This document shows positions 46,682 to 47,158 of a DNA stretch of 64,000 nucleotides, piece after piece. The translations under genes and the position numbers were made by a program. How positions within the stretch are numbered: position 1 is the first letter of the stretch; every line of letters begins with the position of its first letter. Source of the stretch: Schmidtea polychroa (lineage: Eukaryota); NCBI GenBank assembly GCA_044892525.1, contig CM097885.1, positions 31,746,001-31,810,000 of the forward strand, written 5' to 3'. The notes under the pieces were generated by a model. That model worked only from the letters and a program-made list of their open reading frames with translations, did not search any database and was not told the origin of the DNA.

Positions 46682-47158
46682 TTAACTTAATAAATATTCC
46701 AATATTTCTTCATTTGTTGTGATATTTATAGTTAATGATTTAATGAATTTCTGAATTTCTTGAATTTGATTAAAATAATCAAATGTTTTAATCCCTAATA
46801 TAACAACTTTCCCACTTGAAAACACATTTACATATAGGGGGTTATACTTGAGAATACGTAAAGCTGAAAATATTTCAGGCTCGTAGTAACTATCGGTTTT
46901 CCTTGACAATGCATTTAAATCAATGCATGTACCCATATCTAACGTTAATGTAATTGATTGGATTTGTAAATCTTGAATCTGATATTTGAGATCGCCTTCC
47001 TGTAATGGTTTCTTACATCCCATTATCCTACATTTCCCGCTCTTGAAGAATAAAATTGGATATTTTCCACTTCTGTCCACGACATGTTGAGGTTTTCCTG
47101 ATGGGAACTTCATTCCATTTACTACACATCTTCCTCTATAATTAATGTTGCTGATCAT
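46682..47158 (-). CDS. TATA-binding-protein (TBP)-like protein, 158 aa
   Basis: LQIQSITLTLDMGTCIDLNAL...YYEPEIFSALRILKYNPLYVNVFSSGKVVILGIK matches TBP repeat 2 (YEPELFPGLIYRM..P...LIF.SGKVVLTGAK); repeat 1 remnant ILFFKSGKCRIMGCK. Confidence 0.88.
   Translation of the reverse strand: MISNINYRGRCVVNGMKFPSGKPQHVVDRSGKYPILFFKSGKCRIMGCKKPLQEGDLKYQIQDLQIQSITLTLDMGTCIDLNALSRKTDSYYEPEIFSALRILKYNPLYVNVFSSGKVVILGIKTFDYFNQIQEIQKFIKSLTINITTNEEILEYLLS

Follow-up and report, generated by a model that had tools for sequence, protein, structure and literature searches.

A Polinton in Schmidtea polychroa encodes its own TATA-binding protein (TBP) family member, and the matching, non-standard TATA element that precedes the capsid and packaging genes suggests that the Polinton itself turns on the genes for its particle. 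Judging from comparisons of sequence, it is probable that this retuned TBP is a one-protein late-gene switch that acts through host TFIIB and RNA polymerase II (Pol II), convergent with the ORF24/TATT system of herpesviruses.

The element, its genes and its copies

The window (the whole stretch of 64,000 nt that was analysed) holds a TBP-bearing Polinton of ~15.1 kb, from 45035 to about 60142, flanked by terminal inverted repeats (TIRs) and made up of the following features.

45035..46277 (+): left TIR, starting AGTAGGTAG as in sister copies
46271..46618 (-): Cys-rich ORF of 115 aa, downstream of the TBP gene, with no Pfam match
46682..47158 (-): shortened TBP of 158 aa with the saddle kept, from Pfam, PDB matches and an AlphaFold2 model
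47159..47208 (no strand): spacer of 50 bp that separates the TBP gene from the divergently oriented ATPase gene
47209..47832 (+): A32-like packaging ATPase (Pox_A32, E 8e-7)
48034..48360 (+): pX-like core protein (Adeno_PX, E 2e-6)
48430..48927 (+): RVE integrase (Pfam, E 1e-8), the frame of which stops after 165 aa with the remainder in other frames (broken)
49553..50563 (+): penton-like protein, a putative minor capsid component, so named for its position and its resemblance to syntenic ORFs, with no Pfam match
50556..50954 (+): conserved 132-aa ORF ahead of the capsid gene, which we take to be PZ
50951..52174 (+): major capsid protein (structure model, E about 1e-13)
54557..58767 (+): 405-aa ORF and protein-primed PolB (968 aa; Pfam, E 8e-32)
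58774..60142 (-): right TIR, the outermost ~38 bases absent in the window copy

The TIRs (45073-46277 and 58774-60142) are 75-80% identical, and the capsid model matched the double-jelly-roll capsid proteins of an iridovirus, PBCV-1, mavirus and Sputnik (E about 1e-13). Protein-primed PolB, RVE integrase, A32-like ATPase, double-jelly-roll capsid and TIRs were all found, and these, along with pX, are shared with Polintons, Mavericks and adintoviruses (MELD viruses). The element is a Polinton/Maverick, with a broken integrase and, as seen when the 6-bp target-site duplication was checked, a clipped right end in the window copy. A second Polinton, of another clade, lies at 9457-21719 of the window; it has no TBP and no copy of the box described below before its genes, and its ATPase has at least 143 related copies in the host genome.

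The host genome searched (G000) is 781 Mb, AT-rich and has introns. At least 150 copies of the TBP gene, 97-100% identical, were recovered as the best 150 of 4174 candidates, a sample skewed to top scores in which 149 of the 150 are free of stops, and there are many sister families, their TBPs being 49-63% identical. The window TBP departs from all 19 sister copies examined at the conserved positions 98 and 109, and this copy may therefore have drifted since insertion. A TBP match adjoined the ATPase at each of 16 sites picked by the ATPase of the clade, in pieces at four or more of them, and no TBP-less member of the clade was found among these 16. The 115-aa Cys-rich ORF adjoins the TBP gene in some families of the host genome and was found at none of 80 metagenome loci. 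We also observed PolB-less fold-backs (for example L113/L114, L115/L116 and L177) with two left arms inverted and therefore two TBP genes each. Further inverted pairs, 6-14 kb apart, were numerous among the host-genome matches, and one locus (L119) consists of ~4-kb tandem repeats of the left arm.

Homologues of the Polinton TBP made up 72 of 96 candidates, at 37-66% identity, and a profile search returned 58 representatives at E <= 1e-30. At least one other Polinton protein is encoded at 42 of the 80 metagenome loci (ATPase at 28, capsid at 12, PolB at eight), the remaining loci being mostly short contigs; scans of viral_contigs found no relatives. The proteins are 145-180 aa long. In a midpoint-rooted FastTree phylogeny of 116 sequences and 150 columns the family stands apart from canonical TBPs with support of 1.00, and the tree did not identify a donor. 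The median dN/dS for the TBP was 0.17 (range 0.05-0.53, 20 independent pairs), to be compared with 0.11 for the ATPase (13 pairs) and 0.16 for the capsid (9 pairs). The Polinton TBP family is under purifying selection.

Fold and DNA face of the Polinton TBP

The TBP ORF (46682-47158, minus strand) encodes 158 aa without an internal stop and, with the ATPase starting at 47209 on the plus strand, the two genes are head to head, 50 bp apart. Pfam PF00352 matched the ORF in a single stretch (residues 64-130) with 55.7 bits against a curated cut-off of 22.9 (E 4.6e-15). TBP-containing chains accounted for 35 of the 37 matches in a PDB search (best E 6e-11), and a search of the ESM Atlas gave TBP clusters only. 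The AlphaFold2 model (pLDDT 94, alignment of 56 sequences) superimposed on yeast TBP 66-240 and on human TBP with a Z score of 12.7 and an rmsd of 2.4 Å over 145 residues, an extent indicating that both lobes are present; the best non-TBP structure had a Z score of 6.8, and the 50 viral structure matches listed were at most 21% identical. The ORF is a genuine TBP family member, predicted to form the two-lobe saddle.

These results uphold much of what the first-pass annotation had claimed, namely an intact 158-aa TBP ORF with two TBP-like repeats, head to head with the ATPase gene. The TBP fold, on which it had staked the identification in advance, was found by Pfam and in the model; the ORF is present in sister copies (the best 150 of 4174 candidates); and the pattern in the gene is one of purifying selection (median dN/dS 0.17) as opposed to decay. 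The descriptions of the two repeats needed revision. Repeat 1 is shortened, as had been noted, but more is kept than the FFKSGK strand, given that the model has four DNA-facing lobe-1 strands (2-10, 25-28, 35-38 and 42-48). What has gone are helices H1 and H2, with no helix in the model before residue 81, and the first intercalating Phe. Lobe-1 spacings that are 47 and 34 residues in canonical TBPs are 34 and 21 here, 13 shorter in each case. Repeat 2 had been called nearly canonical, which is true of the acidic stirrup YEPE (E93, E95) and of F97 and F113 but not of the DNA face, where five positions have changed.

The yeast TBP numbering used for comparison was cross-checked with Table 1 of PMC12529657; the lobe-1 register follows from aligning the sequences and could be off by one or two residues near positions 22-24. 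Three of the four intercalating Phe are kept (F38, F97 and F113), and at the position of the lost equivalent of yeast F99 different alignments place either Pro or Gln. In lobe 2, yeast N159, V161, I194, V203 and L205 correspond to S68, T70, R101, Y109 and N111, and the polar DNA face of the window TBP comprises N4, N6, R8, R44, S68, T70, R101 and N111. The triple change I194F/V203T/L205V alters the TATA specificity of yeast TBP (PMC1636458), and these specificity residues are among the positions replaced in the Polinton TBP.

A nearly fixed signature was seen among 103 family members with less than 50% mutual identity. On the DNA face, V122 is R in 101, T124 is M in 102, N159 is S or T in 101, V161 is T or S in 103 and L205 is N in 102, with I194 being R in 69 and V203 being C or H in 87. 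Residues kept are F116 (103), F190 (101), F207 (102) and N69 (91) and, in the stirrup, E186 (E in 90, D in seven) and E188 (101). The family thus resembles cellular TBP and TRF (PF00352) in the two-lobe saddle, F116/F190/F207, N69 and E186/E188, and differs from cellular TBP in that the F99 Phe is absent, N159 is replaced, the concave face is polar and, in the sub-clade of the window, H1 and H2 are deleted. Of the marks of a canonical TBP, the acidic stirrup was found; the full set of four Phe, N69/N159 with a hydrophobic face, and a basic H2 were not. Loss of lobe 1 is graded in the family: loci of soil or freshwater type, such as L074, L080 and L098, have near-full H1/H2 spacing, and the window clade has lost both helices.

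A TATA variant before the virion genes

Upstream windows of 150 nt were taken from 92 late-type genes after redundancy had been removed at 80% protein identity. In an unbiased ranking of 7-mers, ATAAACA came top, occurring in 80 of the 92 late-type windows versus 14% of control windows. The form YATAAAC, which was first spotted by eye on metagenome loci that also enter the count, was present in 77 of the 92: before ATPase genes in 13/13, pX in 17/18, integrase in 11/15, penton in 11/20, PZ in 11/11 and capsid in 14/15. Host-genome families L130-L183 and contigs picked by their ATPase were added after the motif had been spotted. Elsewhere YATAAAC was rare (TBP genes 1/56, PolB 1/13, antisense 0/92), and shuffles gave a mean of 5.1 and a maximum of 13, versus the 77 observed. 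Compared with TBP-gene windows, the enrichment by position and strand had a p value of about 1e-25. The 15 windows lacking YATAAAC include those of nine of the 20 penton genes, and several of them have GATAAAC instead. The distance from box to ATG was 33-45 nt at 45 of 85 sites, and no initiator signal was found downstream of the box. The box is identical in the loci with near-full lobe 1 and in the window clade.

A canonical TATA, on the other hand, precedes 29 of the 56 TBP genes (in 19 of the 29 at 31-47 nt from the ATG, a range like that of the viral box) and also occurs in 22 of the 92 late windows. As for boxes that overlap coding regions, the codon pair chosen for Ile-Asn is ATA AAC 24 times out of 33 near late starts and 45 times out of 270 elsewhere (p 8e-11); the corresponding test of Tyr/His/Asp-Lys-Gln codons was not significant (17/18 versus 22/28, p 0.22).

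In the window, the stretch from 47174 to 52175 contains nine TATAAAC sites, each of them on the coding strand, and every gene from the ATPase to the protease has one before it:

47174..47181 (+): TATAAACA box lying 35 nt ahead of the ATPase start codon and confined to the ATPase strand
47799..47825 (+): two TATAAAC sites (47799, 47818) within the 3' end of the ATPase gene
48000..48007 (+): TATAAACA box, 34 nt before the pX ATG
48277..48284 (+): TATAAACA box within pX; the integrase frame has its first ATG 153 nt downstream
49473..49480 (+): TATAAACA box within the 3' end of the integrase, 80 nt before the penton-like ORF
50458..50465 (+): TATAAACA box within the penton-like gene; the 132-aa ORF starts 98 nt downstream
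50909..50916 (+): TATAAACA box within the PZ ORF, 42 nt before the capsid ATG
52175..52181 (+): TATAAAC box, 34 nt before an ATG (52209); a donor-like GTAAGA comes next, and the protease-like frame lies beyond it

The arrangement of the last site suggests that 52175-52265 holds a mini-exon forming the start of the protease gene, which would be joined by splicing. No box was found within 150 nt upstream of the start of either the 405-aa ORF or PolB, and no canonical TATA was seen by eye in the 50-bp spacer of the window copy.

Over the whole window the motif occurs at the level of chance (24 versus 22.5 expected), with only position and strand being informative. This count, and the fragmented state of the TBP at no fewer than four of the 16 sampled host-genome sites, would fit a functionless passenger TBP beside a chance AT-rich pattern. 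Against this stand the dN/dS of about 0.17, conservation over more than 100 divergent proteins and the enrichment at p about 1e-25, which together leave that reading next to no probability; we consider it refuted by selection and by the positional and strand enrichment.

The consensus for Forkhead factors is RYAAAYA. ATAAACA fits it, and many of the sites are found at the 3' end of an upstream gene that runs in the same direction, so that the motif could in principle be a host Forkhead site or a variant of the polyadenylation signal of the upstream gene, unrelated to the TBP. However, GTAAACA was present in only 3 of the 92 windows and ATAAATA in 7, antisense sites were absent (0/92), and in the host genome the ATPase gene has the box despite a divergent neighbour. 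The base preceding the motif was T in 58 cases, C in 18, G in seven and A in only two, which means that AATAAA is avoided. Both explanations are very improbable and largely excluded by the GTAAACA count, the strand bias and the avoidance of AATAAA.

Polintons without this TBP were also without the box. In the TBP-less Polinton-1 type it was found before none of 17 non-redundant genes. Selection by ATPase alone gave 11 contigs, of which eight were examined and three (L187, L192 and L193), short or ending at the ATPase, were left out. Only one of the eight (L184) has this TBP type, and it is the only one with the box, ATAAAC lying at -38 from the ATPase, -36 from pX and -65 from the integrase (3/3 late-type genes); in the other seven, several of which are partial or degraded, the box preceded 0 of 29 late-type genes. 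Two of these box-less contigs (L188 and L190) do encode TBPs, without the Arg122 and Asn205 signature. On the sampled tree the TBP type and the box arose once, in one clade with the trait versus several without it, and no independent loss was found; co-inheritance is therefore inseparable from cause in this comparison.

A candidate late-gene switch

The suggestion in the first-pass annotation that host Pol II may be redirected to the promoters of the element has strong, if indirect, evidence in its favour and can now be made specific, the candidate promoters being the ATAAAC(A) boxes before the virion-module genes. In the mechanism that we propose, the TBP gene would be expressed early from a host-type promoter, as indicated by the canonical TATA before 29 of 56 TBP genes and the viral box before one. 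The virion genes would stay quiet under host TBP, a C at position 7 making for a weak TATA, until the TBP of the element is made. This protein would then bind and bend the ATAAAC(A) box before the ATPase, pX, integrase, penton, PZ, capsid and protease genes, presumably in the usual orientation, which would put the remodelled lobe 1 above that half of the box in which the C lies. It might instead bind in flipped orientation, because the bottom strand TGTTTAT has G at position 2, which yeast TBPm3 accepts via the three residues that are also replaced in the Polinton TBP. If recognition is specific for the box, the viral TBP would prefer ATAAACA over TATAAAAG, CATAAACA or scrambled DNA.

The acidic stirrup would hand host TFIIB and Pol II to the virion genes, and the C-lobe stirrup Glu residues are those that bind TFIIB (PMC7221094). 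We infer recruitment of the host factors because no TFIIB-like ORF was found: among 1553 ORFs of the family loci, most metagenome loci being fragments, none matched host TFIIB or BRF1 at E <= 1, Pfam detected no TFIIB among the ORFs of the window, and it detected no TFIIB or partner factor in 52 representatives of 164 unlabelled ORFs. When the viral TBP was modelled together with a TFIIB core (92% identity to the host exon), the score was 0.10 against a mark of 0.34, a result that we weigh neither for nor against binding. Several host TFIIB/BRF-like loci were seen, including 13 similar weaker matches in two clusters. In cellular TBP, basic residues of lobe-1 H2 bind TFIIA, BTAF1/Mot1, Brf1/2 and TAF1 (PMC7221094). 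Since H2 is the surface for TFIIA, TAF1, Mot1/BTAF1 and Brf1, its deletion in the model would release the protein from these regulators, and the sub-clade without H2 should act outside TFIID and escape eviction. For the clade of 15-20 kb Polintoviruses as a whole, we lean towards a tiny orthogonal switch, in which one TBP of 145-180 aa with rewired specificity (NATAAACA) uses host TFIIB and Pol II and its shortest forms are beyond both hold and eviction by TFIID, TFIIA or Mot1.

The Hoogsteen G-C pair of a TBP-bound TATA box is said to be at position 7. Given that cellular TBP accepts a G-C pair in TATA as a Hoogsteen pair (PMC8643651) and that TATAAACG is a weak TATA in plant cells, keeping 27% activity in one assay (PMC10005294), host TBP or a paralogue might read the box weakly and the viral TBP serve some other end, for instance as a decoy that ties up TFIIB or obstructs promoters of the host. 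At least six TBP-like loci, some of them divergent, are present in the host, and the conserved stirrup is what a TFIIB decoy would require. Reliance on host TBP, however, gives no reason for a fixed C7 while TBP genes carry the canonical TATA (29/56), nor for the lack of the box in Polintons without this TBP (0/17 and 0/29); a pure decoy has no need of invariant new residues on the DNA face, and sequestration of TFIIB, the other option raised in the first-pass annotation, leaves both the box and the conserved DNA-binding face unexplained. We regard this reading as unlikely, with roughly one chance in seven. The host TBP-like loci, some of them divergent and in a single frame, and the TFIIB/BRF-like loci were seen at L101-L107 and L122-L129.

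Less likely again, and in our view improbable, is that binding of the box by the viral TBP serves an end other than activation, whether to repress the virion genes of integrated copies or to organise or package the genome. The TBP gene does often adjoin that of the packaging ATPase (ATPase in 28 of 80 loci), and H2, the activator-binding surface, is deleted. The strict sense orientation, the TATA-like distance to the ATG and the TFIIB stirrup are nevertheless a better fit to initiation, as in the proposed late-gene switch.

That switch has its closest parallel in the viral TBPs of beta- and gammaherpesviruses (KSHV ORF24 and EBV BcRF1), which combine a virus-encoded TBP fold whose DNA face is polar with a TATA variant peculiar to the virus ahead of the structural genes; ORF24 is also polar at the V122, V161 and L205 positions (PMC12529657). 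A herpesvirus likewise has its early genes on host-type promoters, as we infer for the Polinton TBP gene. ORF24 is a protein of 752 aa in a six-factor complex, with four Phe, no acidic TFIIB residues and direct Pol II binding (PMC12529657), whereas the Polinton TBP is a bare saddle of 145-180 aa with an acidic stirrup, three Phe and no partner found. The late boxes differ (TATTWAA in herpesviruses, ATAAACA in Polintons), and the function is proven for ORF24 and proposed for the Polinton TBP. The Polinton TBP is not a member of the herpesvirus vTBP/vPIC group, but it probably works in a like manner.

Nucleocytoviruses have their own RNA polymerase. Their TBP-TFIIB pairs, and poxvirus VITF-3, resemble the Polinton TBP in being viral TBPs for viral genes. 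The TBPs of large DNA viruses have lost the regulatory signature of the N-lobe (PMC7221094, PMC12917281), and large viruses mostly encode their own TFIIB, with the stirrup Glu about 40% conserved (PMC7221094). The Polinton family differs in that the stirrup Glu is present in 101 of 103 members and no TFIIB gene was found in the searches above.

Further Polinton lineages seem to have arrived independently at other TBPs, or at TBP-TFIIB pairs, as answers to the same problem. On two Polinton-like contigs, at L190:4714-5831 (+) and L196:1234-2591 (+), a different TBP is directly followed by a TFIIB-like gene (Pfam TFIIB E 7e-7 plus a zinc ribbon in the former, a zinc ribbon only in the latter), and the pair sits between the capsid gene and the PZ/integrase genes. 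TBP matches numbered 41 in genome G002 and five in G007. From its gene content and order the pair looks like a second, independent Polinton transcription module, of which no published account was found in the literature searched. Near-canonical two-repeat TBPs were observed beside capsid, ATPase or protease genes at L188:2443-2976 (-) and L195:1501-2052 (+).

A TBP in such elements is not entirely new to print: PMC8502044 has a 'TBP' label for MELD viruses and elements related to them in its Fig. 5 legend, in the section on non-animal datasets, and two legends of its preprint carry the label as well. The portions of that text consulted do not discuss the TBP, its structure or a promoter motif, its 'TBP' may belong to this family or to another, and the text of one supplementary file contains neither 'TBP' nor 'TATA'. 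In the literature searched, which included few subscription papers, we found no published description of this TBP family or its box, and no report of Polintons controlling their own transcription. A virus-encoded TBP with a private late promoter is a known kind of system, of which the Polinton TBP and its box would be an example.

A TBP whose specificity has been altered in nature, with the contact to TFIIB retained and the regulatory surface lost, would inform how TBP reads base pairs, and with ATAAACA it is a possible orthogonal promoter-factor pair. Particles of animal Polintons have not been observed (PMC8097293), and whether these elements are real viruses with a productive cycle is a long-open question. 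A dedicated TBP with a cognate box on the virion genes offers a concrete regulatory logic for the question of the Polinton as a virus and, if the proposed mechanism is true, integrated copies would gain a latent-to-productive switch.
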